Shown here piece by piece: positions 20,446 to 46,200 of a stretch of 56,278 nt of DNA. The notes beneath the pieces were generated by a model that saw nothing but the letters and a program-made list of their open reading frames with translations, was not told the origin of the DNA and searched no databases. The DNA is from a virus (taxonomy: Duplodnaviria; Caudoviricetes): positions 1 to 56,278 of the IMG/VR virus record IMGVR_UViG_3300008219_003867. One strand, written 5' to 3'. A program made the translations under genes and the position numbers. Each line of letters begins with the position of its first letter. Position 1 is the stretch's first letter.

Positions 20446-20446
20446 A

Positions 20447-27580: not shown

Positions 27581-27909
27581 TGAAAGTTACTTATACTTCT
27601 GGAAGAACTAGCGTAGAAATTGAAGGCGACACACAGGTTGAAGTTTTTCAACAGTTGGCCAATTTCCAAGAAATTTTTGCAGAGAACATGTGCGGAAAGT
27701 GTGGAAGCGAAGATGTTCGTTTTCAAGTCCGAAATGTAGATGACAATCTATATCACGAAGCAAAGTGTACGGGTTGTAATGCCAAGCTTGCCTTTGGTGT
27801 CATGAAGAAGGGTGGAAGACTCTTCCCCAAGCGCAAGGACAAAGAGGGCAAGTGGCTTCCCGATGGCGGTTGGGTTAAATGGAACCCTGACACACAAAAA
27901 GAAGAATAA
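27580..27909 (+). CDS. Zn-ribbon hypothetical protein
   Basis: CGKC...CTGC; TAATG-coupled on both sides. Confidence 0.8.
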   Translation: MKVTYTSGRTSVEIEGDTQVEVFQQLANFQEIFAENMCGKCGSEDVRFQVRNVDDNLYHEAKCTGCNAKLAFGVMKKGGRLFPKRKDKEGKWLPDGGWVKWNPDTQKEE

Positions 27910-28559
27910 TGGTTGACATACTTAAGATGCAGGCTGAACAAGCGCGCTTGTTCAGAAATCAAAATCGTCAATTTAGAGAAGCCCTGTTTTCTTCTTTGGT
28001 GCATCTGAAACCAAAGTATTGCTTGGAAATAGGAACTCACATCGGTCAATCAACCGAGGTTTTTCAAAAATACTTTGATGAACACCAGCCTGATGGTGTT
28101 GTTGTCACTGTTGATATACATAAGTATAAAAACATTGAATCAAAGAATGTTAAACAGTTAATTGTTCACCCCCATGTTAACAATTCATCGGATTGGCATT
28201 ACGTCAAAAACGAAGAACTCCTTGATCATAACGTAGATTCGGTTGTAAAAAATACCGAATTAATAAAAGAGTCGATAAGGAATTTTTCTGCAAACCAATT
28301 TGATTTTTGTTTTCTAGACGGCGACCATCAAAGAGAGTCTGTTATTAAAGACTTTGCTATTTCAAGAAGTCTATTAAAAGAGCCTCAATACATATTGTTT
28401 GATGATACCGAGGACGATGGTGGTGGGCATGACTCTGTAGATGTATATAACGAAATTGTAGCCGAAGAAAAATATAACATCTACGATTTCTCTAAAGAAT
28501 GGAATGTCTATTGCGGCTGCGCTCTAATATGGAATAAAAAAACCCCGACAGTTCGGTGA
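27909..28559 (+). CDS. Class I SAM-dependent methyltransferase (Methyltransf_24-like)
   Basis: LEIGTHIG, VTVDI, FDFCFLDGDH, ILFDD. Confidence 0.88.
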   Translation: MVDILKMQAEQARLFRNQNRQFREALFSSLVHLKPKYCLEIGTHIGQSTEVFQKYFDEHQPDGVVVTVDIHKYKNIESKNVKQLIVHPHVNNSSDWHYVKNEELLDHNVDSVVKNTELIKESIRNFSANQFDFCFLDGDHQRESVIKDFAISRSLLKEPQYILFDDTEDDGGGHDSVDVYNEIVAEEKYNIYDFSKEWNVYCGCALIWNKKTPTVR

Positions 28560-28593: not shown

Positions 28594-29304
28594 TTATAGA
28601 TATTCTAGCTCTACATATAACCCATACTGGGTCTTGCTTCCAATGCTATCCGGTGATGCCGATATTCCGACATACCAATCATGCTGATAGTATTGGCCTG
28701 TATTAGCAGATCCGTTGCCAGCGTATTGACCGCTTGGCCCCGGAGACTGCGCCAAGGGAACATAAATTCCACTACCACCGACCGTATTTGTACCGGCTGG
28801 TAATCTAGCAGACGGGTTCTTAGACCCGATATACGTTCCCTGTGCGTCTGATCCAGTATGTGATGCGCTTCCCCACCAAGTTGAATCGCCAGATCCTTCT
28901 ACGGAATATGAGACTGAGGGGTGTAGCATTTCTACAACCCTAGTAATAACTCCACTTGCGGGGAAATTTTTATTGTTTCTGTCAAATATCCTTAGCTTTG
29001 TATTTTGCGTTCTTACGGCGCTATCATTGCTAAATCTAACATTTAACGTAGCTTTTGAATTAGGAATAAACAGAAGTCCAGTGGCGGGAACAACCCCCGC
29101 AGCAAAAGACTTTGTGTCGGTAGAATATTTCATATTATTACCAGCACCACCATTGCTAGTGCCGTTACCGTCAGTAATAAATGTTGTGTCTTGCCAGTTG
29201 TTTAGTTGAACCGACTGCCCAAAAGATCCGCCAAAAAACCCCAGACCAGAGCCTGAGAGGTTATTTATGGAAGTGCTTCCAGCAAAGAAACTTATGGATG
29301 CCAT
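28594..29304 (-). CDS. Gly/Ser/Thr-rich probable virion structural protein
   Basis: 236 aa, beta-rich composition, strong SD, terminator directly downstream. No family recognised. Confidence 0.6.
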   Translation of the reverse strand: MASISFFAGSTSINNLSGSGLGFFGGSFGQSVQLNNWQDTTFITDGNGTSNGGAGNNMKYSTDTKSFAAGVVPATGLLFIPNSKATLNVRFSNDSAVRTQNTKLRIFDRNNKNFPASGVITRVVEMLHPSVSYSVEGSGDSTWWGSASHTGSDAQGTYIGSKNPSARLPAGTNTVGGSGIYVPLAQSPGPSGQYAGNGSANTGQYYQHDWYVGISASPDSIGSKTQYGLYVELEYL

Positions 29305-29348: not shown

Positions 29349-29966
29349 TTACTCGAAAAAGCCTTTTGTTTTATTTTGATTGGCTTCTTCTTTTTTATAG
29401 GGAAATAGCTTGTTTAACTTACTTTGCCTTTCCCTGCATCCGCAATCCTTATTGATAGCATCAAACACTGTATCTATGACCTTTTTAACGCCAGTGACCT
29501 TAGTTATTTTTGCTAAAGTATCTCCTAAACCTCTTGATTCGGACGGTATATCAGTATCGCCCATAAAAAATCCGGTATCTTTTTCTATTTTAAAAAATCC
29601 TGTTTGCTCCTGAACCTCGTTTTCTTCGCCTCCTCTGTAGCCTTTCGATACCATTATTTGATTTAATGGATCTTGCATTGGCCCCTCTCCGTTTTCCCAC
29701 ATTTCAAAATAGGCCATCCTATTTTTGCATAAGCCGTGTAGTGATTTACTTTTTATGCACTGGTGTCTATTACAAAATATACTTCCTGAACCTTCCTCCA
29801 TCTTGCATTGACAGGGCGTTGCTGGTGGTACATTTGGTTCGGGGTAATCCCTAACCTTTTTGCCCCCACTTATTACCTTGTCAAAAACTTGAGGCTTACT
29901 TCTTTTTGGATGTCTATTTTCTAAAGTGTTGACATCTTCCTGTTCACTGTTAAAAAAGCCCTTCAT
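29349..29966 (-). CDS. Hypothetical phage protein with two Cys clusters
   Basis: CQC...CNRHQC...C N-terminal cluster; C-terminal GLGDTLAKIT..TG.KK...DCGC..RQ..LN.LFPY motif that I recall from uncharacterised aquatic phage proteins; AAAGGA SD upstream. Confidence 0.8.
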   Translation of the reverse strand: MKGFFNSEQEDVNTLENRHPKRSKPQVFDKVISGGKKVRDYPEPNVPPATPCQCKMEEGSGSIFCNRHQCIKSKSLHGLCKNRMAYFEMWENGEGPMQDPLNQIMVSKGYRGGEENEVQEQTGFFKIEKDTGFFMGDTDIPSESRGLGDTLAKITKVTGVKKVIDTVFDAINKDCGCRERQSKLNKLFPYKKEEANQNKTKGFFE

Positions 29967-29976
29967 TGTATTCCTT

Positions 29977-32900
29977 TTATTCGTGAATGTTTACGTGAAG
30001 TATCGAATTTCCGGGTATTCCATGAACTAATTCCATATCATTCAAATGCGGCCCCATGTAGTGATGCCAGCATTTGTCTGAGCATTTGTGGAAGTTCAGC
30101 GGCCCCTTATCATTGCAACATATCTGATCGAAATTCAAATAGAAGTCCATGCTTGTAGGCTTGTCGCTATTTCCTTGTCTACAATTATTTTCTGGTGGAG
30201 GATATCCTACTATTATATCAAATGCCCCACCGTGTCTACTCCATACCGCTCGCCAATTTGGATCTGCGTATTTATCATAATCTTTATTTTCTTTTATAGA
30301 AACGTCTACCTGCGGCGAGTATATAACACCCTTATGGTTTCTTGGAGAAAGACCAATGCCAACATCGTGACCCATTGCGATTGCTTCTGGGGAAGATAAG
30401 TTCGATAGCTTATCCATCATTGTTACGACATTCATCTTTCTTTCGTCCAATGAAATGCTTTGTGGAGCGCCTTTATAAACAAGTTCTCCACCACCAATTT
30501 CAGTGCAATGTTCTGGCGTGTAATAATCTCCCGCGATTGTTGGATTTACACATTCAAAATTATAAATAGCCGTTCCGGTTCTGCTTACCCCCCAATTGCC
30601 TCCTAACTCATCGCATTCTTGCTTGCTGGTTTTTGATCCAATCATCCCCTGTACATGACACACTCCAGCTAATGAATATTCAGCGCACTCATCAGCATTG
30701 TTTATGCCTCCTATGGGATTTCCAACAAACACACCACCGATGCGATCACATCGCTGCTTTGTGGCTGCTTCTTCTGTAACATTACCATCTTCAATTCTAT
30801 AACAAGTCCCTGCATCAGACCAGTAAGTACCTAAGCATGTTTTATATTCTTGTATAAAATGACAATTATCACTTATCGCACAAAGCTCATAAGCCTGACT
30901 ACTTTCTTGATTGGTGGGTTCGCCGCCTTCAGCAAAGCTATCGGGAATTTCTTGATCTAATCTTGAAAGGTCTATACACCTACTTCCACTGCTATCTTCT
31001 TCCCATGTATTAGAAGTGATGTCTCTGCACTCTTCTTCGGTCATGTCCACTTCTTCGTCATTCTCATCAAAACATTTCCCTACCTTAAGCCAAGCAGCCC
31101 CTCTTGTTGCGTTACACGCGACCGCTCCTAAAGATGATAAAGGAACAGAACTACCTGTGAAGCCACCGTCGTTGGTTACTCTTTTGGGCGTGTTTGATAA
31201 ATCAAACTCCCAATCCGTAGCAATACCGGCTGCTGGTGTTGGCTTATAGGCGTCTAGGTTTGACCTTAATTGACTAGCGTCATGAATTGTTAATTCCATT
31301 TCTTGATGAATGGCAAATTCATTTGCGGCTGTAATTTTACCGTACCAAGCCCACCCGTTTTCTTCACAGTCTTTTTGGTTGTCATATTCAGCATATTGAC
31401 AGCCTCGTTTTCTAGCAACGTAATTTCCATCAACTGGGCCAAGAGGACATTTCATCTCTCTTGTTTCTTTTCCTTCACTGTCAACAACAATAGTTTCCAC
31501 ACACTCGAAACATTGCCCCTGTGGAAAATCTTCACTCGGCGGCTCACATGGGTTTTGTAAGTAGAAACCGTTTAATCTACAACCAACAGGACAGCCTTCA
31601 ATAAAGCCCTCCTGTTTAAACCGTATCTCCTTGGGCTTTAAGTTTAGTGGATCTTCATATTCACCTTTATCATCTATTGTATTGTTTGCTTTTCCAACAA
31701 CCCATGTTCCACCAAACATTTCTTCACAAACATGCTTATCCCCGTTTCCTATTACGTCCTCTCCACTTGGGTCATCAAATATTTGAATCCATTGACCTTT
31801 AGGCTTAAAGACCAAGGGCAGCGCATCTTCCGCGCCGATAGCCATCGCCCTTTGATCGCTAGAGGCATCACAATCTGCTTTATTATTTATAATACCTTTA
31901 GTTAGGTCTTGGTCTATATGAACCCATTTTGAATTTATTATTTGGGTGTCAATGCATTCACCTTTATTACACTCATTTATGTCATCACCTTGTGACCCAG
32001 AGCAATAACCCATCCTTGCCCCCTTACAGGTTGCTGGATAAGCCACGCTTCCACTAATTACAAGCTTCTCAGCATCAGCTAAGTCATGAGGGTATTTTGT
32101 TGTAACTTTTGTATATAAGAACTGAGGAACCCAAAAATGCTTTGCTTTTTCACAATCCTTCTTGGTTTCGTAATAAGGATTGATGCAAGTTCCATCCGAA
32201 TCTGAATATACATTATCAAACCTGTCAATTTGAACAGGCTCAAAAGGCCATATCTCTGGTATGGGTGTACTCATTCCTCCTGCCATAGCCTCTTCTGTAA
32301 ATCTAAACATCCTATTTAGATTATCCATTGTTGGCATAGGCCCAACTCTTCCGGGTTGATTAAGGGAAAGAGCAGGGTCTTTTCTTAAGCTCTCCGTGGG
32401 TATACCCCCCAATAAAGGATTGGGTGAATGTGGGCCTCCTCTAGGCCACGGGCTATAGGCGGTTGAGTGCGTTTGATGATCGACAGGCCAAGGTTTTAAA
32501 CCATAAGGCTGCGGTAGATCGTACCTTAGCTTCATGTTCATATCAGTAAGCAAGCTCGCATTTGGCAAGCCATATGATGATCTATCATAGATTCTTAAGT
32601 GTCTATTCTTCCTTGGGTTTTTGGTTATAAGCGGTGCGATATTCGCAACCCTTATTTCCATAAACTGACACGCAGCGCCACCACGACCCCTGTCTCCATA
32701 TTGGTCAACTATTGGGTTGTCTCCGCGTGGAATACCTTGGTGGTTTGTGTAAACAATGTCTGTAGAACCGCTAGCCGACGTTGCTTTTTCGGTGCAGGTT
32801 CTGGCCCCGGTTATAATTGTGCCACCGGCTGGTAAGTATGGATTTCTGGATTTGTTATTTCTTGAGAAACTACCAAAAGTATCAAATTCAGCATCTGCTA

Positions 32901-35900
32901 ATTCTGCTAGACCAATACCAACGGGGGTTCCACTTTCATAATCACATCTTATGCCACCGTATGTTGGGGCGTAGGCTGGAACAACCAGCGTTCCTTCACC
33001 CGTTATAGGATTAACGTCTTTTATATAGTGAACAGTGAATTGTTCTGCTGGCTTTGATGGAAGGGGATCAAAACCGGTTGTGTTACATCTATGTGCAATA
33101 TCTCCACCTTGAGAGCAAGCAATAGCTCCGTTCCAAAGTGGCCCACTTATAAACAGGGCTTGATCCCTCCCCTTGTAGGTACAGCATTCTGTGCCGTGAC
33201 ACGGCCCCTTTGGGCCGCAATATTGATGCGTCATACACCTTCCTGCGAAGGCAAAGACTCTTTCTGTTATGGTTGGTTCTCCCGGTGGAGACAGTTCTGT
33301 GTCTGGGCCGTGTACACTTTTAATTAACTGTCTTTTAGATATACAGGGCAAGCCGGGAAAACAAGGTGGAGATCCAGAAATGCCGCTATCAACTCTTCCA
33401 ACCCTTAACCCCTCAGACCCTATGAAATCTGTAAATGTGCAGTTTGTTATTTCTGACCATATTTGAATACCATTATCTCTATAGTTGGTGCTTCCCTGTG
33501 GCCCAAAACCACCATCAACAACGTCGCCACTATTATAAGCGGCTATTGATGGTATAGAGTTTCCACAGCCCATTACCACCCTAATAAAATGCCCATCATT
33601 GGTTGCAGTTGGCGGTTTTACATTTCTATGCTGAAACAAACGATTTTTATCACGTTTTCCGGTATGAGGGACGCCGGTTTCCCTAGCTTCTCCATCAATC
33701 AATATTCCCCACATCCCCATTTGAGGCATATCGCATCCATCACAGTCAGCATTGACGGCAACAATTTCTGTTGGAGAAATATAATCAACATCTGGAACCG
33801 TTGGCCCAGTTGCTCTACAATGTACAGGCCAGTGGAACCTATGTACCCCAAAGCCGTTGTCTGTTGCTTCGCATTGTTTTAAACCAACCTCATTCATTAA
33901 CGTCCATTCTGATCGCCACACAACCCCATCATATTCTAATGGCACGTCAAGCGTCCCAAGGCCGGGGCATGTTGAGTCGTATGGCTGAACAGAATTTCCT
34001 AAATCATAACAGGATTCATCAGCATCTGTCGTTATTCGTGTAGGCCCACAACCACCAGCCCCGCTTTTCCATTCTTCGGTGTTAGCATCACAGTCTGATT
34101 CTACTGTGCCGTCTTTTCTTCCTCTTCCGGCTCCTAATCCTTTTTCTACCCATGTGGAAGTAGCTGAAGCTTTACAGGCTTGTTCACCAAGGCCGTTCCT
34201 TACACCGAATTCATCTACACAATGAGCAAGGGTGTAACACCCGCCAGCATTGTTTACTCCCACATCTCCGTCTTCGTTCACGTCTCCATTGAAATCACAG
34301 CTTCCCAGCTTGCCTTCGTCGTATACATATTCACCTTCATATTCATACGGGACATTGTGTGGGAAACAAGCACAAGGTTCAAAATGCCAATCAACCCCAA
34401 CTTCTTGCCCATAGGGATCAAATAGCTTACTACAGGTTGCCTTTACGTTTCCGACATGTTCAACATCTCCTACTTTTACGTCTTTTGACCCACAAGCTCC
34501 AATGTGGAATCTCACATCTTGACACTTTGGATAAGGAAAATTGCGATTTAGAAGTCTATTATCATGCTCGTTTACGGTTCTTTCACACAGGGTAGTATCT
34601 TCACAGCAGTTATTTCCTGCATAATCCAATAACCCCATTTCTCTCGATTTTACATTTCCGGTTTCTGCATGAGTTTTTATCTTGTGTCTGGAACTATATA
34701 CGTCTGAGCATCTTCTACAATTTGTAGTTCCAGCAACGTTAAGGCGTGTTCTAATGAACATATCACAACTTTGTGGATTTGGTAGTGGCGTAAATGTACC
34801 CCCTTTATTGTCTACGCAATCATCTTGCCTATAGGCAACAAGCAATTCTCCGTCCCTATGACAGTGACCAAAAGTTATACCACCTTTCCATGTATAAACT
34901 GGGCCAAGACAGTCTTGCTCGGACACATTAACAGTCTCACCAGTTGACGTTAATACACATTTTCCGGGGGAGGTGTCAATAAACTCACTTTCACAAACAG
35001 CAACATCTCCACCCATCCAGCCCATATCACACCCATGATGTGCATCGCTACAACAATAGCCATCATGACTTGCTTTTCCCGTTACATCACTAATCTTAAC
35101 TGAGTCATCTGCCGTTGGTGCATCACAAGGATCCATTCTGCAACCAATATGATTTAATATTTCAGTTGGTTGATCTATAATTGTTGCAGTAAGGCTTCTA
35201 GGCATAAAATGATCACAACATACGGGACATATGCCCTTTTGTTCAATTTGTACATAGTAATCGTTTGCTCTTTCTTCCCATTTATATCCCGGCCCACCCC
35301 ATCCGAACCTGTACATTGAGTCTAGTTCTGCTTGGCTAAGGTGGCCTACATAACCAGCTTCTACACCAACGTCTCCATTTGCAGCGTGACCCCAATAGAT
35401 AAAATCACCAGTGAATGGACACACTTTCCAAACACCCACCGCTGGCTTTCCTTTGCTGCCTCCTTCAATTGCTCCACCAGTCATTAGCTCATTACTGGAT
35501 TTAAAGTCGTTTTGAATCCAGCAGCCTTTAAAAGCGTTTAAATCATCGCCATCTTTTAAGGCTTCAGTATCAACACATTCAGCATATTGTGTCTTGGCAT
35601 ATCCAGCTTTCCAAGTTCCACCCATACGAGTGCATTGGTCTTCGCTACTTGCACCAATATCATCGCCATTAAAGTCTAAACACTTGCCATTTCTTTTTTG
35701 GCACTGTTGTTCTACTTTATCAAAGTCCTTAGCATTATTTATAATTGATTTATGATTGTCTCTGTTGGCATCAATGTCATAGCACTGGTTCACATATTCT
35801 TGATTTCCGTCTGTGTAACCTTTATCGGGGTAAAAACGCCTGAAGGTTTTGGCAAGCAGGACGCACTCGTCTCTTGTAAACATAGACTTATCAATACCAA

Positions 35901-38900
35901 AATGATTGTCTATAATTGTGCAAATTCCAAAGGTGGAACATCTGTCTGCCGCTCCTTCTGCGCCTGACCAATTTCCATTTGTCCACGTCAGCGGCGCTCC
36001 ATCCTTATTGTATCCCGTGCATTCATGTTGTTTTAGTGTTTCAACTTTAAGATCGTTTGCATAGCAGGCAAACGCTGTGCAATCGAGTTGTGTTTTGTTG
36101 TTTTGCGAATCTATGTCGCACTCACCTTCGGTCAGTCCATAATTATTAACCCAGCGATAATTGGTAAGTTCTACGTCTTCTAGGCACATTGCCTTCGTGG
36201 TTAGATCAACTACAATATTGTCTTCGCTATTTACACAGTATTCTTTCTTTTCAAAGGGTTCAATGTAAGGGAGGCCAACATGTCTATCGTCATTAGTCTC
36301 TGCTGTTACAACAGACCACTTAGGCTCTGTAACAACTGCCTCATAGGGATAGCCAGCATTTTTTACGCAAACCATCCTACTTTCGTCTGGACATTCTGTA
36401 GTATCTAAATTTGTTTTGTTTTGTATTGTTCCATCAACTGGATGTTTATCGCATGTGAATAAATCAAAAGTATCAAGTGTTACATTTTTAGCTACAAAAG
36501 CCTGCATCGGAGGGGGGTCTTTTCCTAGTATGCGTTCCCCCTCACAAGCATAAAACTTGTCGGAATCGCAAAAGGTTGAAAAGGTGTTTCCTACTTTACC
36601 ATCCCATGTTGATCCACACCCCATCTGGCTTTCTGGATTTTCCCACAGGTAATTTACACACGTTCCGTTGCCAGCGACATCGAGGCAGCACGCAAATTTT
36701 TCTCCATCACATGTTTCTCCAGCAGAGAAGTCAAAAGAAGGATGTTTTACAAACCCCTCTGGGCAAGTACCATCCGAGTTTTTCGGCGCGCATTTATCTT
36801 TAGAGGCTTCGCATGAACCCCCATCAATGCATTCAGACCCGTCTGCTCTTTTATCTTTACATGATCCTAATGTACAGCCCTGCCTGTCTAGTCCCGGTAT
36901 TTCATTGCCATTTTTATCCATACATACTGAATCTTTAGGGCATACAGAATCTGGCCACATTGGTTGTTCACAATCGTCCTCACACTGGTTGTATATCTTC
37001 TCTTCCCACTGGGTTTCTTGCCACTCTCCTGTAGTCATAACATTGGCGGCAAAATTGCCAGCGACATTGGAAATATTAACAAGGTCGCCATCTTTTAGCA
37101 GGTGGTTTCTAGAGGTGATTCTAATTGGACTATCATTGCTAGCATACTGAATCCTTCTTTGTTGAGAAGTTCCCAAGCAATGGTCGTTAACATAGCTGAC
37201 CATCTCACCCTTGGGGAAAAGCCCAGTGTGATGCCAATAAGTCATGGAGTTGCCTACCTCTGACCCTCCAGTCCCCAACAACCCCGGCTTTGCCCCCCAT
37301 ATAACTTCTATCCCTGCCGCGTCTCCGACTGTATAACAGTCTTCTTCGGTATCAACCAAAGGCACTTCTTCGCCAAAGATGTCAAGTTCCGGTATATACG
37401 CAAAACAGGCAGGCTTTTTAAAGCCGCCTTCTATTTGGCTTAGATCGGTAAATCCTGTACTTAAAGGCCCATCAACTCTCACCCTAACTACTTCGTTTTC
37501 TCTTGCTGGATAAGTATTTCCTTGACCACCAACAGTCCCCACCTGCTTCCCTAAAACAATGTCTATAAGGTCTTCCGGTATATCTTCAACAATCGAACAC
37601 TCTTCATTCAATAGTCTATCAGGATGTATGTTGCAGCCCTCTGACCATGTGCCACCAGCACATGTGTTGCTCATTTCGCATTCGCATTCAACTTTATTAG
37701 TCGCTTCTCTCCATATGCATTCTTCCTCTCCTGACCAATTGCCCTGTCTCCATACATACAATTTAGATAAACAGGAAGCGATGTTAAAGTCTCTAATAAG
37801 TTTTTGACCGATCCATTTACCACCAGCCCTTGCGCAATCTTCTTCATTATCGTGTCCTCCTCTGTCGCAGTAGTATTCATGATATTCCTTTCCACCGGTG
37901 TCATAACATTGGAATTTTTCGCATTCTTCCCTTGAACTGTTTGCTCCCGCATTAATATCACATATGGGTGGCTTTATAACTTCTGATAAATTGGTACATA
38001 TTTGTTCTGAGCATTCTTCAGTCCATTCGCAACAAAATTTAGTCGCCGCCCCAGCGTCCGTGTCCGCTTCTAAACAATCACCATCGTAAAATGTGCCGTC
38101 TTCTTTTATGCAACTACTTGCGCTACCGCAGCCACCCTTAGATATTGGCTCGCACTCTCGACAACTTGGATCGTTTACTGTGGCATCGTATGGAACCCAC
38201 CCAACCCACATGGCTCCATTTCCGTAACCACAATCACCCCTTCTCAGGAAGCCAACATGACTATCAACATAGTCGAGTGCCGCCTGAGCTATTCTTTCAC
38301 AATGACCTCCCGGCTTAACGCTAAAAGTACCATCTCTACCAACATTAAGTTCATCCCACGCGGTAAAATCGTGATACATGAAATAATCTATGCCGTAATT
38401 CCAAAACCAATGACCACCACCATTTCTATGGCCCAATTTGTGATCTACGCACCCCTGCCAATATCTTTTGTCAGAAACGGCTTGCTGGAAGGGCTTGGCC
38501 CTATTTTGCTTTTCTTCGGAGGGCTTAAAGGGTTGTGGTTGTATATTGAACCCGTGAAGAACCTCTGCCCCCTTAGCGTTGGCAAGCCGTCTAAATTCTT
38601 TACCAGATGCATAATAAACATACTGATCGCAACCAAGGCCACCTTGACCACCATCTTCTATTCCATCCCAGTTTGCGTCTGGATTCATGCACCATTCAGG
38701 ATACTGGGTTGAAAAAGGTATTCCGGGGAAACCTCCTGAAATATTCCCAGCCCCAGCGACGGCATTGTCCATTGCTCCAACTTTTGCGGCAATATTGGTT
38801 GCGGGGTTTCCGTACTCATACGCTCCCATTCTCTCATCCCACATTGGTTCTGGCTCTTTCCAGCCAGATCTTAATTGGGTTTCACTTTTCAGTGTTAGAT

Positions 38901-41409
38901 TAAAGTTAGAGCAGTTTAAGAATTGATCTACCGGAAGATATAGAACTACTTCTTCGCCGCATGTTGTATCAAAGTAATTGTCCGCTTGTCCTATTAATTG
39001 ACTGGGGTCTGGTCTTTTCTTGCCTTCTTCCATGCAAGAACCCCAGAAATTGCACGGCCTAATGACAATAGTCCAATAGCTTTCGGTGTCTGGAAAGAAT
39101 ATTTGCCTGTCAAATTGATTTCCGATAGAGGTGCAACCTGCCCCTCGAAGATCTCCAATAAAGCCAGAGTTCGCACTTGGGGATAGAATCACTTCTGAAT
39201 AAGGGGTGAAGCACACCGTATTTTTTCTTGTGTTGGCAGCGCCCCCTGAAATTTGAGGGGTGTGGAAAGGATGAGATTGATCTAAGATGGTGCCGCCACA
39301 ACAAGACCTTCTTTCGTATTCCCAATCAACCCAATCGTTGGGCATCCATACATTGTGATACCATATTCCATCCGCTGCTTCGCAGCCGCGTTTTGATGAA
39401 TAGGAAGTCCAGCTTCCCCCCTTCCAAACCTCTCCTGTTGCGTTGCAATACGCTTCGGTGTTATCTAATTTAACACCATCCTTATAGCAGGCTAGTGCTT
39501 CACAGGCGGGCTGTGTCGTATTATTTTCAGGATCTAAGCTACATTCGCCAGCAGCAAAGTCTTCTCCGTCAGAGTTTTTGCATTTAGCCTTTTCATTTCC
39601 AAGGTGTTCTAGACAGTTTCCTTTACTTCCATGTACCCATACCGTTCCACTTGGGGCGTCTCGTTCATGAACGTTTTCGCAGTCCTTTTTATTTTCGCAA
39701 CAAGGCTCTATCCATGTTTCAGCATCCGAATCTCTACACTCTTGTTCTGTCATTGCTCCCGGTGGAACTTTATGCCCTATCTCATCAAGGCAGTAGCCAT
39801 CCGATTCATATGGCGTTTCTTCTACCCATTCGGCTCCATCAATAGCGAGGCAATTAGTTTTAGTATATACTTTTTTACTGCCCCAGTTTCCATTTGTCCA
39901 AAGCTCTCCGGTTCCCGTACAAGACCCTTCATCTTTTCCTGTTTTAACATCGTTTGAATAGCAGGCCAACTCTGTACAGTCTTCTTCTGTTGTGTTGTTA
40001 TCGGTATCTATATCGCAAATGCCAGCCTCTTTAGTACAGGAACCTTTTACTGCACAATAGGGTGATAATGGAGTTCCAGATAGATCCGCTATACCAGAAA
40101 CGCCTGTTTCTTCGGGAGGGTAGCAAGCGCCAAAACCTTCACATTCGCTCTTATCATCATAGAGCCAAGTTTCTGCCTCGCTTTCGCCAGTCCAAGTCCC
40201 TCCAGCGGCTGAACAGCTTTCTGGGTTGTCATAACCTCCATCAATGCTGCATCCAAAGTGTTCGCAGTCTTCTTTATTCCTTTTTGATGTATCGGTACAC
40301 TCTTGCCGTATTCTTTTTCCTGTGGCTGAATTTCTACACCAAGGACGTTTCTTTATTGGCACAGCCCCATCTTCTATACATCCACCCTCTCTAGCGCCGA
40401 CATCTGAATAAGTAATCTCTGCATCTGCAACATTTTCAGCTACTTCTTCGTCTGTTCCATTTTGTATGCTATAACCAACAAGAAGATTGTCTTCGTCTAT
40501 TTTTATTCTTTTTTCTGCTACTTTTATGTTCATGCGAGCAGAAGCAACGTTTGCAGAAAATTGCGTCTGTTGTACTTCAGTACCAATTAAATCTTCAACA
40601 GGATCTCTATCTGTTACATCGTTGTTTGTCCAATCAGGCTCATATTGATTCCAATAAGCGTCTGGCCCATGTACAGCCTTACATGAAGGATCGTCTTGAA
40701 TGGCCCCGCTAAACTCTTGTAGTACACCATCCCCATTAAAACAAGCCGTATATAGCCCTACCTTCTTTGAAGACTTTAGCATTTCAGTGCCGTCAGTAGG
40801 AAGGGTTTCATTATACCCTTTTGGTACTAACCAAGTGTCTACACCCCTTCTTGGCCACACATCTCCAGTCAAAGCCTTGTCGTATTTATATTCATCTCTT
40901 GGAGCGAAGCCGTCTCCTACCTGATAACTACTATCTAATTCTTTATATTTATTATTAGCATGGTGGCATTCGGATGGTTTTCCATTTGGAAGGGTGCTTA
41001 CTTTACATGGATCGCAGGCATAATCGAGAACCCCATCTGCATTGTGGGAACAGCACCTACTACCTCTCCAAGCGCCTCTAGAATATTTAAGATGATAGAC
41101 TTCACCTACGCCACTTTCAATATCGCTTCTGGCTTCCCACCTGCCATCTGGTGTTCTAAGTATTGTAACGGCTATCTCAGGAGGAAGGGTGCATTTATGG
41201 CCTGCTAGATTGCTACACCCTGTGTCTATACAACCACACCCCTCTGTGCAGAACCTCCCCTTCCTCCTGTCTTGTAAAGAAAGGGGGTCATCTTGAGGTA
41301 CTTCATCCGAAACATCTGGCATCCATGATGGCATGCCAGTGCGTTCATTTTTAAGGGATGTACTATAACGAGGGTTATAGGTTGTGTCCCAAGGGTCGCC
41401 TATTGCCAT
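29977..41409 (-). CDS. Giant (3810 aa) cysteine-rich repeat protein, probable virion fibre/adhesin
   Basis: 11.4-kb uninterrupted ORF, very rich in Cys, Gly, Asp and Glu; dozens of C-x(n)-C-x3-GG-x-W modules; two interrupted E1-FCCH-like beta domains. Function inferred from operon position. Confidence 0.75.
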   Translation of the reverse strand: MAIGDPWDTTYNPRYSTSLKNERTGMPSWMPDVSDEVPQDDPLSLQDRRKGRFCTEGCGCIDTGCSNLAGHKCTLPPEIAVTILRTPDGRWEARSDIESGVGEVYHLKYSRGAWRGSRCCSHNADGVLDYACDPCKVSTLPNGKPSECHHANNKYKELDSSYQVGDGFAPRDEYKYDKALTGDVWPRRGVDTWLVPKGYNETLPTDGTEMLKSSKKVGLYTACFNGDGVLQEFSGAIQDDPSCKAVHGPDAYWNQYEPDWTNNDVTDRDPVEDLIGTEVQQTQFSANVASARMNIKVAEKRIKIDEDNLLVGYSIQNGTDEEVAENVADAEITYSDVGAREGGCIEDGAVPIKKRPWCRNSATGKRIRQECTDTSKRNKEDCEHFGCSIDGGYDNPESCSAAGGTWTGESEAETWLYDDKSECEGFGACYPPEETGVSGIADLSGTPLSPYCAVKGSCTKEAGICDIDTDNNTTEEDCTELACYSNDVKTGKDEGSCTGTGELWTNGNWGSKKVYTKTNCLAIDGAEWVEETPYESDGYCLDEIGHKVPPGAMTEQECRDSDAETWIEPCCENKKDCENVHERDAPSGTVWVHGSKGNCLEHLGNEKAKCKNSDGEDFAAGECSLDPENNTTQPACEALACYKDGVKLDNTEAYCNATGEVWKGGSWTSYSSKRGCEAADGIWYHNVWMPNDWVDWEYERRSCCGGTILDQSHPFHTPQISGGAANTRKNTVCFTPYSEVILSPSANSGFIGDLRGAGCTSIGNQFDRQIFFPDTESYWTIVIRPCNFWGSCMEEGKKRPDPSQLIGQADNYFDTTCGEEVVLYLPVDQFLNCSNFNLTLKSETQLRSGWKEPEPMWDERMGAYEYGNPATNIAAKVGAMDNAVAGAGNISGGFPGIPFSTQYPEWCMNPDANWDGIEDGGQGGLGCDQYVYYASGKEFRRLANAKGAEVLHGFNIQPQPFKPSEEKQNRAKPFQQAVSDKRYWQGCVDHKLGHRNGGGHWFWNYGIDYFMYHDFTAWDELNVGRDGTFSVKPGGHCERIAQAALDYVDSHVGFLRRGDCGYGNGAMWVGWVPYDATVNDPSCRECEPISKGGCGSASSCIKEDGTFYDGDCLEADTDAGAATKFCCEWTEECSEQICTNLSEVIKPPICDINAGANSSREECEKFQCYDTGGKEYHEYYCDRGGHDNEEDCARAGGKWIGQKLIRDFNIASCLSKLYVWRQGNWSGEEECIWREATNKVECECEMSNTCAGGTWSEGCNIHPDRLLNEECSIVEDIPEDLIDIVLGKQVGTVGGQGNTYPARENEVVRVRVDGPLSTGFTDLSQIEGGFKKPACFAYIPELDIFGEEVPLVDTEEDCYTVGDAAGIEVIWGAKPGLLGTGGSEVGNSMTYWHHTGLFPKGEMVSYVNDHCLGTSQQRRIQYASNDSPIRITSRNHLLKDGDLVNISNVAGNFAANVMTTGEWQETQWEEKIYNQCEDDCEQPMWPDSVCPKDSVCMDKNGNEIPGLDRQGCTLGSCKDKRADGSECIDGGSCEASKDKCAPKNSDGTCPEGFVKHPSFDFSAGETCDGEKFACCLDVAGNGTCVNYLWENPESQMGCGSTWDGKVGNTFSTFCDSDKFYACEGERILGKDPPPMQAFVAKNVTLDTFDLFTCDKHPVDGTIQNKTNLDTTECPDESRMVCVKNAGYPYEAVVTEPKWSVVTAETNDDRHVGLPYIEPFEKKEYCVNSEDNIVVDLTTKAMCLEDVELTNYRWVNNYGLTEGECDIDSQNNKTQLDCTAFACYANDLKVETLKQHECTGYNKDGAPLTWTNGNWSGAEGAADRCSTFGICTIIDNHFGIDKSMFTRDECVLLAKTFRRFYPDKGYTDGNQEYVNQCYDIDANRDNHKSIINNAKDFDKVEQQCQKRNGKCLDFNGDDIGASSEDQCTRMGGTWKAGYAKTQYAECVDTEALKDGDDLNAFKGCWIQNDFKSSNELMTGGAIEGGSKGKPAVGVWKVCPFTGDFIYWGHAANGDVGVEAGYVGHLSQAELDSMYRFGWGGPGYKWEERANDYYVQIEQKGICPVCCDHFMPRSLTATIIDQPTEILNHIGCRMDPCDAPTADDSVKISDVTGKASHDGYCCSDAHHGCDMGWMGGDVAVCESEFIDTSPGKCVLTSTGETVNVSEQDCLGPVYTWKGGITFGHCHRDGELLVAYRQDDCVDNKGGTFTPLPNPQSCDMFIRTRLNVAGTTNCRRCSDVYSSRHKIKTHAETGNVKSREMGLLDYAGNNCCEDTTLCERTVNEHDNRLLNRNFPYPKCQDVRFHIGACGSKDVKVGDVEHVGNVKATCSKLFDPYGQEVGVDWHFEPCACFPHNVPYEYEGEYVYDEGKLGSCDFNGDVNEDGDVGVNNAGGCYTLAHCVDEFGVRNGLGEQACKASATSTWVEKGLGAGRGRKDGTVESDCDANTEEWKSGAGGCGPTRITTDADESCYDLGNSVQPYDSTCPGLGTLDVPLEYDGVVWRSEWTLMNEVGLKQCEATDNGFGVHRFHWPVHCRATGPTVPDVDYISPTEIVAVNADCDGCDMPQMGMWGILIDGEARETGVPHTGKRDKNRLFQHRNVKPPTATNDGHFIRVVMGCGNSIPSIAAYNSGDVVDGGFGPQGSTNYRDNGIQIWSEITNCTFTDFIGSEGLRVGRVDSGISGSPPCFPGLPCISKRQLIKSVHGPDTELSPPGEPTITERVFAFAGRCMTHQYCGPKGPCHGTECCTYKGRDQALFISGPLWNGAIACSQGGDIAHRCNTTGFDPLPSKPAEQFTVHYIKDVNPITGEGTLVVPAYAPTYGGIRCDYESGTPVGIGLAELADAEFDTFGSFSRNNKSRNPYLPAGGTIITGARTCTEKATSASGSTDIVYTNHQGIPRGDNPIVDQYGDRGRGGAACQFMEIRVANIAPLITKNPRKNRHLRIYDRSSYGLPNASLLTDMNMKLRYDLPQPYGLKPWPVDHQTHSTAYSPWPRGGPHSPNPLLGGIPTESLRKDPALSLNQPGRVGPMPTMDNLNRMFRFTEEAMAGGMSTPIPEIWPFEPVQIDRFDNVYSDSDGTCINPYYETKKDCEKAKHFWVPQFLYTKVTTKYPHDLADAEKLVISGSVAYPATCKGARMGYCSGSQGDDINECNKGECIDTQIINSKWVHIDQDLTKGIINNKADCDASSDQRAMAIGAEDALPLVFKPKGQWIQIFDDPSGEDVIGNGDKHVCEEMFGGTWVVGKANNTIDDKGEYEDPLNLKPKEIRFKQEGFIEGCPVGCRLNGFYLQNPCEPPSEDFPQGQCFECVETIVVDSEGKETREMKCPLGPVDGNYVARKRGCQYAEYDNQKDCEENGWAWYGKITAANEFAIHQEMELTIHDASQLRSNLDAYKPTPAAGIATDWEFDLSNTPKRVTNDGGFTGSSVPLSSLGAVACNATRGAAWLKVGKCFDENDEEVDMTEEECRDITSNTWEEDSSGSRCIDLSRLDQEIPDSFAEGGEPTNQESSQAYELCAISDNCHFIQEYKTCLGTYWSDAGTCYRIEDGNVTEEAATKQRCDRIGGVFVGNPIGGINNADECAEYSLAGVCHVQGMIGSKTSKQECDELGGNWGVSRTGTAIYNFECVNPTIAGDYYTPEHCTEIGGGELVYKGAPQSISLDERKMNVVTMMDKLSNLSSPEAIAMGHDVGIGLSPRNHKGVIYSPQVDVSIKENKDYDKYADPNWRAVWSRHGGAFDIIVGYPPPENNCRQGNSDKPTSMDFYLNFDQICCNDKGPLNFHKCSDKCWHHYMGPHLNDMELVHGIPGNSILHVNIHE

Positions 41410-43223
41410 TATAGTCCTGCTGTTTGTGGATAGTCATCATCAGGCCCGCAGTCTTCTGCCGTAGCAAATCCTTGGGCGAAGAATTTTTTAGAACAAGCGG
41501 CCATCTCACCTCTATCGCATCCTGCATGTGAAAGAATTTCCATTCCGTAAAACTCCGCTTGCAATATTATATGGACAGGTATTGCTTCTTTTACTGTTAC
41601 TGTAGTTCCAGAAGTTTGACCACAACTAGGATCAATCATTCGTTCATATTCATAAACTATTCTCTTACCAGTATCATAACTGAAAAACGCATCCCCTACC
41701 ATTAAGCCTTGACCTAGAGGATTTTCGATAAATATCTTTTCGTACATCATAGCCTTTGCATGCTGCGTCCAAGTTTTATCTTCACCAATTTTTCTGTTAA
41801 CAAACTCTTTTTCTCCAAAATAACTAGAACCCCATCCATGACACGGGTTTCCAGCCCTTCTTGATCCGGGCGCTCCACCTTGTACCTTTCTAAACTTATC
41901 AGTACATTCAGTAAGCGTGTTTGGCTTGCCAACCACTTCATCAATTGGCCTTAATATGATAGCATCATAAAAGGGTGCGCATCCATCTTTAAAATCTGAA
42001 CAAGCAGTTAGGTGTCCCAAAGTTCTACATCTACCGCACCAGTTGTGGTCTTCTGGGTCGTATATTTCAATATCTGGATAGTATATACTTGTTGGAAAAT
42101 ACGAAGTGTGTGTGCAATCATGTGTTGGGCATGGGTTTCTGTAAAGCCTTCCCGGTGCATTTACATTTCCACCAACACCAAAGTTGAATGAATTATTTCC
42201 ATCTAGACCAGCTTGTGGCAATATACACTTAGTAGCCTTAGATAAATATATACCGTTGTGTTTACCACCAACCCAAACCTTTCTTTGGTGATCCCATCTT
42301 AAATCAACAGGCCCAACCTTCCATTGGTCAGGTCTTCTCATGTGGACTGGTATAAAGTGCTTATGGTCTTCTTGCATACCAGACACGCTTTTTGCCTGCA
42401 TCGGGGGTGGAACATATCGCTGTCTTCCATAATTCGCAGCCCCCGGCTCATTATGCCTATACTCAGCATCGAATCTAAGGTTGGGAACCGGGTTTTCATA
42501 TATATCATAGCCCCAACCAGCCATTACCATTGGCCCCCTAAGTCCTATTGGCCTTGCGGTGTTTTTTTGTTTTGTTGGAGCATCAACCAGCGTTGCAACG
42601 TCTGTTGAAAACCCACCACCAACAGCCACCTGACTTGGATTTGTGAGTGTCTCGTTTTTATTAAGCCGCGCAATGAAGTGACCAGAAGCAAACGGATTTA
42701 AAGATATAGACGTAATAAAAGCTGGCCCCGGAGCGTTGACACCTAGATCTTCATGTTGTCCAACTTCCTTAAAAGCAACGCGGTCATCAACACCGCCTTC
42801 TTTAGCTGTGCTATAAGGTCTTTCAAAAGCTGGAAATCCGGTATCATCTAATGGTCTATTTAAGTCTGAGTCTTTACCGCCGTCGTTTCTTACTTTGAAA
42901 GCTGTGTCATAAGGCACAAACAAACCATCTAAAGACATGCCCGCAGATTTTTTCCAAGAGTCATCCCCTCCAAATTGAGACATATAGGTAACCGCTGGGC
43001 TTGTCATGGTTGTTGCGGTGGAGTCCAATATTTTCATTGCCCCCCCACCCTCAACCGGATGATTATCCCAATACATAACCTTATTTTGACCATCTCTAGC
43101 AACAAGATTAGCATTAACGCTATACATACTTGATAGCATCAGATGGCTATAATCAGCTAAGTCGGTCTTTTCTCTATCTTCTGCGCCGCCTTGACCAGCG
43201 TATGTTATTTGGTTTCCAGCCAT
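41409..43223 (-). CDS. Hypothetical tail-region protein with a Cys-rich C-terminal half
   Basis: 604 aa, TAATG-coupled on both sides; the first half has no Cys and the second half has many. Confidence 0.7.
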   Translation of the reverse strand: MAGNQITYAGQGGAEDREKTDLADYSHLMLSSMYSVNANLVARDGQNKVMYWDNHPVEGGGAMKILDSTATTMTSPAVTYMSQFGGDDSWKKSAGMSLDGLFVPYDTAFKVRNDGGKDSDLNRPLDDTGFPAFERPYSTAKEGGVDDRVAFKEVGQHEDLGVNAPGPAFITSISLNPFASGHFIARLNKNETLTNPSQVAVGGGFSTDVATLVDAPTKQKNTARPIGLRGPMVMAGWGYDIYENPVPNLRFDAEYRHNEPGAANYGRQRYVPPPMQAKSVSGMQEDHKHFIPVHMRRPDQWKVGPVDLRWDHQRKVWVGGKHNGIYLSKATKCILPQAGLDGNNSFNFGVGGNVNAPGRLYRNPCPTHDCTHTSYFPTSIYYPDIEIYDPEDHNWCGRCRTLGHLTACSDFKDGCAPFYDAIILRPIDEVVGKPNTLTECTDKFRKVQGGAPGSRRAGNPCHGWGSSYFGEKEFVNRKIGEDKTWTQHAKAMMYEKIFIENPLGQGLMVGDAFFSYDTGKRIVYEYERMIDPSCGQTSGTTVTVKEAIPVHIILQAEFYGMEILSHAGCDRGEMAACSKKFFAQGFATAEDCGPDDDYPQTAGL

Positions 43224-46200
43224 TATGATTTACCTGTTTGATATTGATCTATTCCACGTTTTGTTCTTTTAATTTGCTCTTCTGTTCTTGCAAGATTGGC
43301 AAGAAGATCTCTCTGGCTTTTTCTTATTCTGTCTTCATATGTTTTTGTTAGATCTCCAAATTTTCTGTTTGTAGTAAAGTTATAGGTTGTTGTTAAACCT
43401 CCAGTTCCTATCTGAACACTAACGTCTGTGATATACGGCCCTTTTACTATTTCACCAGCAGCGTTTGTGTATGTTAATTGCGTCCCAAAAGCATAAGCTG
43501 GTATTCCCGTTAATTGAATATTTCCGGTTTCTTGAGTTCTATTTTGAGCCTTGCCAATTGTAGATTTGACCCTTGCCATAGCAGCTTTTCCCATTTCCTT
43601 TTCCCCACCAAAAGCTGCTGGATGGAACGCTTCATCTATTTGGAAATCGGGTTTTCCAAAGTCCCAACCTGCGGCCCAAGCCCCCCACCTATAGTGTCTA
43701 CTTTGTTGAGGAACGGCTGCATGCCAAGGTTTATATACAGCCGCCTTAAAAGAACCCTTCTTCATATCAGGCGCAACACTACTATTAGCAATGATCCTAG
43801 CACCCCAAGCCACAATGTTTTGTTTTGCTATACTCAGGGGATCCCAGCCCATTAACCATGCCTGCAACAAGCTGTTTGCATTTTTAGCATTTAATAAAGG
43901 CACGCACATGTGGTTCTTCTCGCCACCCACAGAATCATGTAGCTTTTTAGATTCATCCGTTTGTGAATAAAGAGCGGCTGCTGGAAGTGTTACCAGCGCG
44001 TATGGTTTATATGCAGCGTAATCAGTTAATATTTCTTTAGGGAATGCTCCAGTTATTCCCTTTGTTACCACGGGTCTTTCGTTTAATACTCTTTGTGTAC
44101 TTTGGTTCGCGTTTGTTATTGCGTCTGCGACTGGATCTCCGGTATTTACATCTTTTGGTGGTTTTGGCCCAACCACTGCAATTGTTGCTAAATCTTCTAG
44201 TTCAGCAGCGGTTTCACCCCCCTTGGGGAGTTCCATAGGACTACCAGCTAAATATTTTTTATACTGAAGCTCATGGTGAACTTCCCAATCTGGCCTCTCT
44301 GTTAGCCAGTGTGTTTTTGGGTCTATTTGTGTAGGCACAAATACCTTGCCGCCCCAGTTATCGTGAGGGCCAGCATTAAATGTCGTCTGGTAAAAACTTT
44401 CTGCATCAAAAGCACTAAAACTCACGGGTACGGCATTTCCAGAGAATCTTTGCCATTCTTTTTCTGGGAATATAACAAAGGATTTTAAATTTCCGTCATC
44501 AGTCCAAAAGTTCATGTTTTGTGGATAGCCAGCGTTAACAGCTTTTGACTCTTGACTACCAAAGTTATATTCTATATCCCCTCCGGGCCATCCAGCAGTT
44601 GCAACTTCCCATCTATTAATTTCTTGGATTGGCTCAATCCATATATCTCCGTTGATTATTTCACATGTGTATTTGTCGGGGCTTACTCCATTTGTACATC
44701 TTCCAACGCCCATTTTGTGGAACCACTCGCTTTGTAGGCCGTGTGTACCCCAATCAAAACCAGCATCTTCGCAACCACCTTTACCCTTATAGCTTGGGTT
44801 TGTACATGTTACGGTTGATGGTGGATTAAAAGGAAGCGGCACTAAATACTTTCTTCCGTAGAATTGGGTAGCGACATGTGCAACCTTTTTATACGCAAGG
44901 TCTACCATCATGCTCGTTTTCTCATACACTGACATGACAGTATTCGTACTAGGATCTCCACATGGCTCACCAACAGTCGCCTTTGCTTTTCCGGGGGAGG
45001 GCTTGGTGCTAGGAACATGCACTCCCCTTCCAGCAAACCCAGTTAAAGCATTTGCCGCATCTACATGCGCCCCGCTCATTCCACCTTCTATGATAACATC
45101 GTCTTCCGTTGGACACCAATCTCCCCAATAGTTTCCGGGGACTGGATTTTGATAATACATGTGGCAGGGAAGGTACGGCTGAAGCTCTCTCATAAAATAC
45201 AGCCAAGATTCTTTACTAGCCGCAGCATGTCTTAATTCTGTTACTGTTGCATAATGGAAGTCTTGGAATTGCTCGCCGGGATCATTATGTTCTGGTTTGG
45301 GGCCACCATAATAATCAACTTGTCCTAAATCTATAGGAATGGTTGAAGTTCTACATTTTAGAGGCAAGCCTCTTCCGCTCTTAAGATCTACGGGTGCGTA
45401 GACCATCCTCCCTCTTGTTTCAAGATCCTTATCGGTAGCTGGACTACCCTTTTGGTAACATTCTCTTGGGTCGTTGGTTGGGCCACCATCACCATCTCCC
45501 GGCGGGCCTTGATCTTCTGTATCTTCTACACCCTCGTTTTCTTCAATCGAGAACATATGGCAGTCGCCTTTTAGTCTCTGTCTTGTTTTTACATATCCCG
45601 GTGCTGGAATATCTTCTGGCGCTAATTCTATGCCATAGTATGGGTCTTTAAGTGCGTAGCCAAGAGAGGCTCCAGCGGCGTCGGTAGCATTATCTGGAAA
45701 TACGTTTTCAGGAATATTTTTCCATTCGGCTTCGCCGGGGTATTTTTCTTCACAGTCTTTATATGTTACCGCATCGGTTCTACTACCGTCTGGGAACACC
45801 AAGCCTGTCGGTGTTGTAATTTTCGTTGTAGCTATACAGCCATGTTGCCAATCAAATCTAAAAGTAAGAGCTATGCATTCATCTGAATAAAGACCGCCAC
45901 CGCTTTCATAGTCATTTTCATCTCCTTTTACCCAATTTCCCCCGGATGGTTTCCACGCTTCTCCAGCGCCTGTACAATCAGCCTGTACTTTGCCGAAAGC
46001 TCCAGCACACTGCGCTGTGTGACAATCTGTCTCGGTAGGGTTATCTTCAGTATTAATATCACAATGATCACTCTCTGCTATGTCGCCATTTTTGTTAATT
46101 CTAAAAGAGTCTCTTATTACTTCGGGGGTAAGCATTTTTCCACCATCCACACAGTCTTGCGCGCTTTGCACCATATGGACGGTTCCGTTGGCTAGGTTTG

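Follow-up and report, generated by a model that had tools for sequence, protein, structure and literature searches.

A giant cysteine-rich protein encoded among the tail-tip genes of an uncultured marine long-tailed phage

Here, we describe a giant, cysteine-rich gene product encoded in a 56,278-nucleotide stretch of tailed-virus DNA (Duplodnaviria; Caudoviricetes; IMG/VR record IMGVR_UViG_3300008219_003867), hereafter called the window. The open reading frame (ORF), whose product is referred to as P0001, codes for 3810 amino acids (aa), 197 of which are cysteines. We propose, with moderate confidence, that it is a giant structural protein of the distal tail (tip or baseplate), made without an export signal, and that its cysteines are mainly engaged in disulfides. 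In the best-supported reading it is an orphan, extreme variant of a disulfide-stabilised phage tail component, a kind of component that is already known. This proposal is favoured by the location of the gene in the tail-tip region after the tape-measure gene, with overlapping stop and start codons and a gene order kept in two related contigs, and also by a peptidase insert in 2 of 20 homologues, the conservation and spacing of the cysteines, and modules common to the protein and the products of neighbouring tail genes.

The cysteine enrichment of this ORF is real and far beyond chance. Cysteine accounts for 5.17% of its residues, in comparison to 1.63% in the remaining 36 window ORFs of at least 150 aa (233 cysteines in 14,295 residues); at the rate of the window 62 cysteines would be expected instead of the 197 observed (binomial p 2e-43). 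The giant protein holds 21% of the window's residues and 46% of its cysteines, and the second-richest ORF reaches 3.41%. Its composition is modular and, apart from cysteine, rich in glycine, aspartate and asparagine. The annotated start can be regarded as sound, since homologues have the N-terminus MAIGD[PF]WD in common and since the ATG overlaps the stop codon of the gene upstream (TAATG). No signal-like or membrane segment was found in the protein by Kyte-Doolittle hydropathy in 19-residue windows, the maximum being 0.99 anywhere and 0.32 where such a 19-residue window begins within residues 1-60; among 22 family members, none of these N-terminal windows exceeds 0.84. A first-pass annotation of this DNA, made from the letters alone, had described an 11.4-kb ORF of 3810 aa with an extreme density of cysteines and no N-terminal export signal, and in all of this, down to the exact coordinates, strand and ATG start, it was right. 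Its statement that no oxidase lies nearby was also borne out, as none of Erv1/Alr, DsbA, thioredoxin and glutaredoxin was detected anywhere in the 56-kb window. The many CC pairs that it had noticed, however, are no more than chance provides (10 observed against 10.1 ± 3.0 in 500 shuffles).

In the Caudoviricetes gene order of long-tailed phages, the tape-measure gene is followed by those for the tail tip or baseplate. Counted from the tape-measure gene, and on its strand, the giant gene comes fifth, which places it in this tail-tip and baseplate region. Of eleven related viral contigs, G001 (97.6 kb) and G002 (92.6 kb) were examined over their whole length. Both keep the order tape-measure protein, 1115-, 785-, 2034- and 604-aa proteins, giant protein, 205-aa and 236-aa proteins; seven of the eight block genes match by BLASTP at 1e-5, and the tape-measure end matches weakly. 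The tape-measure counterparts have 2,346 aa in G001 (Cys-free; tape-measure PHROG match at E 1.5e-30; L014 12585-19625) and 2,522 aa in G002 (also Cys-free; E 9.8e-27; L036 100-7668). At about 1.5 Å of tail per tape-measure residue, a protein of 2,346-2,522 aa implies a tail of ~350 nm, which is very long for a phage of ~150 kb. Upstream on the same strand, G001 carries a large terminase, a protein resembling the major capsid protein, and a tail fibre that includes an S74 chaperone domain, and its head and tail proteins are poor in cysteine (0-0.7%). Because the relatives carry a tape measure, a terminase and a major capsid protein-like gene, and the window itself ends in a tape-measure C-terminus, we conclude that the source of this DNA is a long-tailed phage. 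The block neighbours of 1115, 785 and 2034 aa belong to no Pfam or PHROG family, and a PDB sequence search (E <= 1) returned no match for the 1115-aa and 2034-aa proteins and two, both at E 0.26, for the 785-aa protein, none being significant.

The giant protein itself is a member of an orphan family. A word-indexed search of 5.8 billion proteins returned 21 giants of 3,004-4,216 aa, one of them the window's own protein; 19 are 28-60% identical to it, and P0022 matches over 3% of the query only. With a profile of the best-conserved core, 27 proteins were found at E <= 0.001 among all 1.84 billion representatives. Some cluster members come from the marine <0.22 µm fraction. Neither Pfam (E <= 1) nor PHROGs (E <= 0.01) assigned any family to the giant protein, and Pfam assigned none to the seven proteins scanned among the distant relatives P0068-P0080. 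No relative was detected among 50,697 phage records (tblastn, aa 1-3000) or in the 185,579 species genomes scanned, and a PDB sequence profile search with aa 2440-3160 gave no meaningful match (best E 0.37). We also found no paper on this family in full-text searches on Cys-rich phage virion and tail proteins.

Cysteine makes up 3.8-5.2% of the 22 listed giants and at least 3.1% of 20 out of 23 further representatives, the three below that value being short fragments or weak matches. It is the most conserved residue type in the family, with a mean column identity of 0.73, followed by tryptophan (0.58); histidine reaches 0.35. All 20 sequences share 66 of the 197 cysteines, and 109 recur in 18 or more of them. 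In two of the 20 homologues (P0011 and P0012), a Peptidase_M23 domain, which is typical of tail-tip lysins, is inserted after the position of aa ~1665, where P0001 has a gap; no M23 domain was detected in P0001 itself (Pfam, E <= 1).

The conserved cores of the protein (aa 1-200, 680-1110, 1400-1500, 1600-1700, 2000-2100, 2450-3150, 3200-3350 and 3650-3810) are separated by variable stretches found in few homologues. BLASTP self-comparison revealed no long internal repeats, and the repeats consist of short modules only. One of these, of ~45 aa, contains four cysteines (C-x13-C-x4-C-x12-14-C...W-x2-G-x-W) with neither CxxC nor histidine. The giant protein has five strong and two weak copies of it, the closest homologue three and other homologues 0-4, and two copies are present in the neighbouring 2034-aa protein. 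The other module is a 2-Cys hairpin, C-x8-20-C-x2-5-G-x1-2-[WF], which occurs 11 times in comparison to 2.0 ± 1.4 in shuffles and is found again in the 2034-aa (6 copies) and 785-aa (2 copies) proteins. A cysteine gap of 6 is enriched (16 vs 7.9), and so are gaps of 11-14. Lineage-specific inserts contain 5.9% cysteine. The 109 Cys-bearing inserts, which are not independent of each other, carry an even number of cysteines in 64 cases and an odd number in 45; those with at least four cysteines, likewise not independent, are even in 26 out of 27 cases. Many of the 49 variable cysteine columns form matching pairs, as if lost together, a pattern confounded by clade structure.

Could the cysteines instead mainly bind metals (zinc, or iron and iron-sulfur)? 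The protein would then fold in the reducing cytoplasm without any oxidation and could possibly still be a tail protein. We regard this as unlikely. It is true that the product is of cytoplasmic origin, without an export signal, and metal sites form under reducing conditions. There are also invariant knuckle-like clusters, namely C2061-P-V-C-C-D-H2067, C2556-D-G-C2559, C132-D-P-C135 with C148-H149, and C54-x3-C-x-C-x4-C, and the inserts with at least four cysteines, almost always even, have exactly four in 15 cases. However, CxxC (6 vs 9.2 ± 2.9) and CxC (3 vs 9.6 ± 2.8; 500 shuffles) are at or below chance in the protein as a whole, and zinc knuckles are disfavoured as a general theme because these pairs are not enriched. 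The repeated 4-Cys module, with spacings of ~13, 4 and 12-14, has neither histidine nor knuckles, histidine is poorly conserved across the family, and no zinc-finger or zinc-ribbon Pfam family was matched at E <= 1. Paired CxxC or CxxH knuckles, the mark of proteins rich in zinc ribbons or zinc fingers, are not in excess in the giant protein, although single metal sites may exist at the few conserved clusters. As far as can be judged from the letters, the module spacings and the non-enriched CxxC fit disulfides better than zinc.

Several points weigh against a disulfide-stabilised tail protein. Its presence in virions and the disulfide state of its cysteines are things that we infer, as are the timing of oxidation and a role in adhesion or penetration. 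The conserved clusters with histidine or CxxC (CPVCCDH, CDGC and CDPC...ECH) look like metal sites, and the even cysteine counts in inserts would fit 4-Cys metal sites equally with disulfide pairs. Among small inserts, whose boundaries are fuzzy, 38 are even (2 cysteines) and 44 odd (1 or 3). The other virion proteins of the lineage are depleted in cysteine (0-0.7%), a rule which the giant protein breaks, and its C-terminus is conserved, unlike that of most receptor-binding tips. Furthermore, no fold or family match to a fibre, hub or lysin was obtained with Pfam, PHROGs, PDB profile search, Foldseek or VIA, and the AlphaFold models are poor (mean predicted local distance difference test, pLDDT, of 37 and 58), which leaves the Cys-Cys geometry unreadable. 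These AlphaFold2 models covered aa 2440-3160 (11 sequences; mean pLDDT 37.4, unusable) and aa 2700-3135 (34 sequences; mean pLDDT 58), the latter being reasonably confident, and mostly beta, at model residues 90-230 and 360-410. With these models of poor confidence, Foldseek against PDB and BFVD returned nothing at E <= 0.001, and the best result of a wide VIA-align search (Z 4.9, generic small barrels resembling EF-Tu domain 2) is below the meaningful level. ESM Atlas gave no usable match for aa 340-700 and 680-1115, and a complex prediction for three copies of aa 1-210, a segment whose own fold is uncertain, scored 0.00, which speaks neither for nor against the proposal.

If the disulfide-stabilised tail protein is nevertheless accepted, it would be synthesised in the host cytoplasm, lacking an export signal, and would join the neighbouring gene products in the assembled tail. 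Its ~200 cysteines would be mostly structural, located in the conserved cores and in the repeatedly inserted 4-Cys and 2-Cys modules, and would form intramolecular and possibly also intersubunit disulfides. Contact of the particle with oxic seawater could bring these about, or else a phage PDI-like thioredoxin with a WCPHC active site could catalyse them at an earlier time. They would serve to stiffen a very large, exposed device for adhesion or penetration. The sequence is equally compatible with oxidation after lysis and with catalysed oxidation.

Candidate helpers are encoded by relatives. Six out of 12 related records encode thioredoxin (PF00085), in each case by two neighbouring genes, the first with WCGPC and the second with WCPHC in 6 of 6 records (L023 1158-1740 in G002; also G003, G004, G005, G008 and G010). 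The pair precedes RecA by ~9.5-10 kb, and in the records reaching that region a class I ribonucleotide reductase is found ~4 kb from the two genes. Because of this distance to RecA in relatives, the pair would lie just beyond the left end of the window in the phage described here. In nine of 68 metagenome loci a WCPHC gene precedes RecA by ~9.4-9.9 kb; WCGPC adjoins it in six, and in the other three the partner would be located past the locus edge. The pair was seen in loci L046, L047, L060, L069, L076 and L089. The WCGPC protein has 106 PDB sequence matches, mostly canonical thioredoxins, and the WCPHC protein has seven, six of which are PDI-family domains and one DsbD. Near the thioredoxins of G002, a 212-aa protein (L023 2312-2950) contains the duplicated motif DPKTGACWEGY[EQ]RVPNTKKGEPGSC.

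The ordinary explanation of phage thioredoxins is a neighbouring ribonucleotide reductase, and the class I enzyme ~4 kb away speaks against a dedicated oxidative role of the pair. On the other hand, Patrx2 of Pseudomonas aeruginosa, an atypical cytoplasmic CPHC thioredoxin, is reported to have a redox potential of -170 mV, to be a weak reductase, and to catalyse both formation and isomerisation of disulfides in vitro (PMC12830090). Another report lists CPHC variants of E. coli thioredoxin among the redox-active helpers co-expressed for cytoplasmic oxidative folding in a trxB suppressor strain (PMC3526497). The phage WCPHC paralogue is likewise a small thioredoxin with a CPHC site and is likened to Patrx2 by its active site only; the activity is that of Patrx2, and the phage protein is known from genes of relatives. 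It is conceivable that the phage itself runs oxidative folding in the cytoplasm, with the WCPHC and WCGPC thioredoxins forming and shuffling ~100 disulfides before lysis and the finished device being unlocked by reduction at the host surface, a scheme that we consider quite unlikely.

The first-pass annotation had offered metal binding, oxidation after lysis, or a phage-encoded thiol-oxidation pathway outside the window as explanations for such a protein, and this interpretation survives in part. The phage context on which it was built and its rule that tailed-phage virions are usually Cys-poor agree with the terminase, capsid-like, tape-measure and S74 fibre genes of the relatives and with the cysteine-poor head and tail proteins of G001. 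For its pathway outside the window, the WCPHC and WCGPC thioredoxins of relatives are candidates, and no enzymes of the Erv or Dsb type were found: Erv1/Alr (PF04777) matched in 0 of 10 records, the window included, all of them fragmentary with a CheckV completeness of 24-64%, and DsbA in 0 of 5 related records, again all fragments. Metal binding is weakened as the main explanation by the CxxC and CxC counts, and it keeps the few conserved knuckle-like clusters.

We also considered that the protein may be an internal pilot or cargo, packaged in the head or tail lumen and delivered into the cell envelope or cytoplasm, whose reducing conditions would keep the cysteines as thiols or restore them to that state, as with the T7 core proteins and the virion RNA polymerase of N4 (~3,500 aa, an ejected enzyme of known fold). 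Giant size together with orphan sequence is typical of ejected proteins, an M23 insert in 2 of 20 homologues would suit an ejected wall-degrading protein, and the two genes just before the giant gene have cytoplasm-like cysteine contents (~2.1%). However, the position of the gene is behind the tape measure, in the company of tail-tip and not of head genes, the lumen of the tube is already filled by a tape measure of 2,350-2,520 aa, and a protein with many disulfides could hardly thread the tail channel; we therefore regard an ejected role as improbable. Like the N4 enzyme, the product is one phage-encoded chain exceeding 3,000 residues, its association with the particle being presumed here; in contrast to the N4 enzyme, it is encoded in a tail-tip block and shows no polymerase motif or fold match. 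The stretch NADCDGCD is faintly like the RNA-polymerase motif NADFDGD, and a polymerase reading of it was rejected: only D2555 and D2560 of NADCDxCD are invariant, the middle (second) aspartate is in neither the invariant nor the 90%-conserved columns, and one relative fragment reads NADCGNCD. No polymerase fold or family was matched for the giant protein by Pfam, PDB profile or fold search, the last on low-confidence models.

A non-virion late protein that is released at lysis and oxidises outside the cell (an exoprotein whose targets are host surfaces, polysaccharides or competitors), or a scaffold for assembly, would accord with the lack of a structural family match, with the Cys-rich, Gly/Asp/Asn-rich modular composition resembling secreted adhesins or enzymes, and with the large glycan-synthesis cluster converging on the block from the other strand, but is very improbable given a gene translationally coupled within a conserved tail-tip block, modules common to the protein and neighbouring block products, a strictly conserved extreme N-terminus as expected of a docking end, and the cost of an 11.4-kb gene in a ~150 kb genome.

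The features of the window are listed in Table 1. The 56,278-bp record has no terminal repeat and is estimated to represent ~37% of the genome, which gives a genome of ~150 kb. Its minus strand consists of eight orphan genes; the 236-aa protein is the best-conserved gene of the tail-tip block and has no family match. On the plus strand are found RecA, DnaB, primase, deoxynucleoside monophosphate kinase, a PD-(D/E)XK nuclease, a sigma-70-like factor, a ~13 kb glycan-synthesis cluster, an HNH-like endonuclease and a methyltransferase. Two separate ORFs, one with PHP and NTPase domains and the other with finger and HhH domains, make up the DnaE-type polymerase and stand on either side of a 227-aa DnaQ/RNase_T-like exonuclease gene, and G001 and G002 show the same three-gene arrangement. 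The glycan cluster contains four GT1-type and one GT2 glycosyltransferases, a nucleotidyltransferase, three sugar epimerase/dehydratase-like genes, a gene resembling 2-oxoglutarate- and iron-dependent (2OG-Fe) oxygenases, and a CmcI-like methyltransferase. N-glycosylation of the giant protein by the adjoining glycosyltransferases was considered and discarded, its N-x-S/T sequons being not enriched (29 vs 24.7 ± 4.1). G001 additionally encodes, between the capsid-like gene and the tail genes, a nearly Cys-free protein of 1,876 aa (L035 54-5684; G001 73453-79083), whose repeated stretches match 'virion structural protein' and 'tail spike' PHROGs and which may be a large decoration of the head or neck, or a fibre.

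Table 1. Positions of the tail-tip genes, the segments of the giant protein and other features in the window
Feature	Position	Strand	Remarks
Tail tape-measure protein, C-terminal end	55035..56276	-	Open at window edge; 0 Cys; weak match to end of G002 protein, E 6e-9
Tail-tip block gene 1	51684..55031	-	1115 aa; 0.81% Cys; orphan
Tail-tip block gene 2	49327..51684	-	785 aa; two 2-Cys hairpin motifs
Tail-tip block gene 3	43223..49327	-	2034 aa; 2.1% Cys; 4-Cys module (aa 1087-1132); 6 hairpin motifs
Tail-tip block gene 4	41409..43223	-	604 aa; stop overlaps giant ORF start
Giant Cys-rich ORF (P0001)	29977..41409	-	ATG start; 3810 aa; 197 Cys
P0001 conserved N-terminal domain, aa 1-200	40810..41409	-	MAIGDPWD...; 10 Cys; no signal peptide; 52-73% mean column identity
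P0001 variable region, aa 340-680	39370..40392	-	Three ~45-aa 4-Cys modules (aa 369-410, 463-509, 621-667)
P0001 conserved core, aa 680-1110	38080..39372	-	No known family
P0001 4-Cys module, aa 1148-1203	37801..37968	-	Within insert found in few homologues
P0001 conserved segments, aa 1390-1700	36310..37242	-	Site of M23 insert of 2/20 homologues
P0001 4-Cys modules, aa 1762-1814 and 1875-1938	35596..36126	-	First strong, second weak
P0001 conserved core, aa 2000-2130	35020..35412	-	Invariant CPVCCDH cluster (possible metal site)
P0001 largest conserved core, aa 2440-3160	31930..34092	-	NADCDGCD with invariant CxxC; beta-barrel ~aa 2790-2930 (moderate model confidence)
P0001 conserved C-terminal domain, aa 3650-3810	29980..30462	-	
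Downstream protein	29349..29966	-	205 aa; 3.4% Cys; matches phrog_32048 (unknown function)
Last block gene	28594..29304	-	236 aa; Cys-free; Gly/Ser-rich; 72-77% identical in G001 and G002
Split DnaE-type polymerase and exonuclease	7430-9343, 9557-10240, 10185-11813	+	
Sigma-70 region-2 protein	12113-12712	+	199 aa; between polymerase genes and glycan cluster
Glycan-synthesis cluster	12709-25410 and 27909-28559	+	~13 kb; converges on tail-tip block
HNH/homing-endonuclease-like gene	25872-26660	+	0 Cys; near end of plus-strand unit
Protein with N-terminal HeH/LEM (SAP-like) DNA-binding motif	26660-27580	+	End of plus-strand unit

No GenBank phage exceeds 24% identity in the terminase or 34% in DnaE, and no cultured relative of the lineage is known. 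It is common in marine metagenomes, where 68 RecA-related loci were found on contigs of up to 151,741 and 157,242 bp.

Tail-tip proteins encoded after the tape measure include Dit and Tal of lactococcal phages, lambda gpJ, and pb3 and pb4 of T5, and some Tal proteins carry a C-terminal M23 domain. The giant gene is similarly downstream of the tape measure and its product is large and modular, with M23 in 2 of 20 family members. Unlike those proteins, however, it is 3-4 times longer, Cys-rich and without a sequence or fold match to them, and the M23 domain of the family is an internal insert, missing in the window protein, and not a C-terminal domain as in Tal. A cytoplasmic disulfide pathway is known in poxviruses, which employ the Erv-type oxidase E10R, A2.5L and the thioredoxin-like protein G4L. 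The phage relatives also encode thioredoxin-fold proteins, one with an oxidising-type active site, and the protein described here, presumably a virion component, probably contains disulfides; unlike the poxvirus system, theirs includes no Erv1/Alr oxidase in the ten fragmentary records, and a ribonucleotide reductase lies near the thioredoxins.

Further parallels come from tailed phages whose virions are assembled in the cytoplasm without export and hold many structural disulfides, namely Agrobacterium phage Milano, cyanophage Pam3 and Mycobacterium phage Jabs; in the giant protein the disulfides are presumed. In Pam3, Cys-rich wedge regions are disulfide-bonded to the fibres, which dithiothreitol releases (PMC9942802). 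In Milano, a disulfide network runs through sheath, baseplate and fibres, and structural proteins contain 2.1% cysteine in comparison to 0.9% overall in T4 (PMC10811340). Jabs is reported to have ~1,700 disulfides, some of them in the adhesion device (PMC13419713). In Pam3 and Milano, fibres come off or contraction becomes possible on reduction, which in Milano was combined with guanidine HCl (PMC9942802, PMC10811340). Cys-rich virion parts are thus unusual but not unprecedented in tailed phages, since such disulfide networks have been published for all three. In these phages the cysteines are spread over ordinary-sized proteins of known folds, whereas here they are gathered in one orphan chain of 3,810 aa, 2.5 times as Cys-dense as the structural set of Milano (2.1%). 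No sequence relation was found between the giant protein and proteins of Milano, Pam3 or Jabs.

If the proposal is true, no tail protein yet described from a tailed phage would come near this one in cysteine density and few would in size, and the finding of disulfide-locked phage tails by cryo-electron microscopy would be extended to an extreme case built with small mobile Cys modules. Since Pfam, PHROG and fold matches are all lacking, the family moreover represents a sizeable region of sequence space devoid of annotation. It raises the question of how a protein needing ~100 disulfides folds in the reducing cytoplasm of bacteria, for which the phage PDI-like thioredoxin is a candidate helper. 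Should the phage have an oxidative-folding system of its own, it would be a bacteriophage counterpart of the cytoplasmic disulfide pathway of poxviruses, and the reductive unlocking of the tail device at the host surface would then resemble what has been proposed for Pam3 and Milano.

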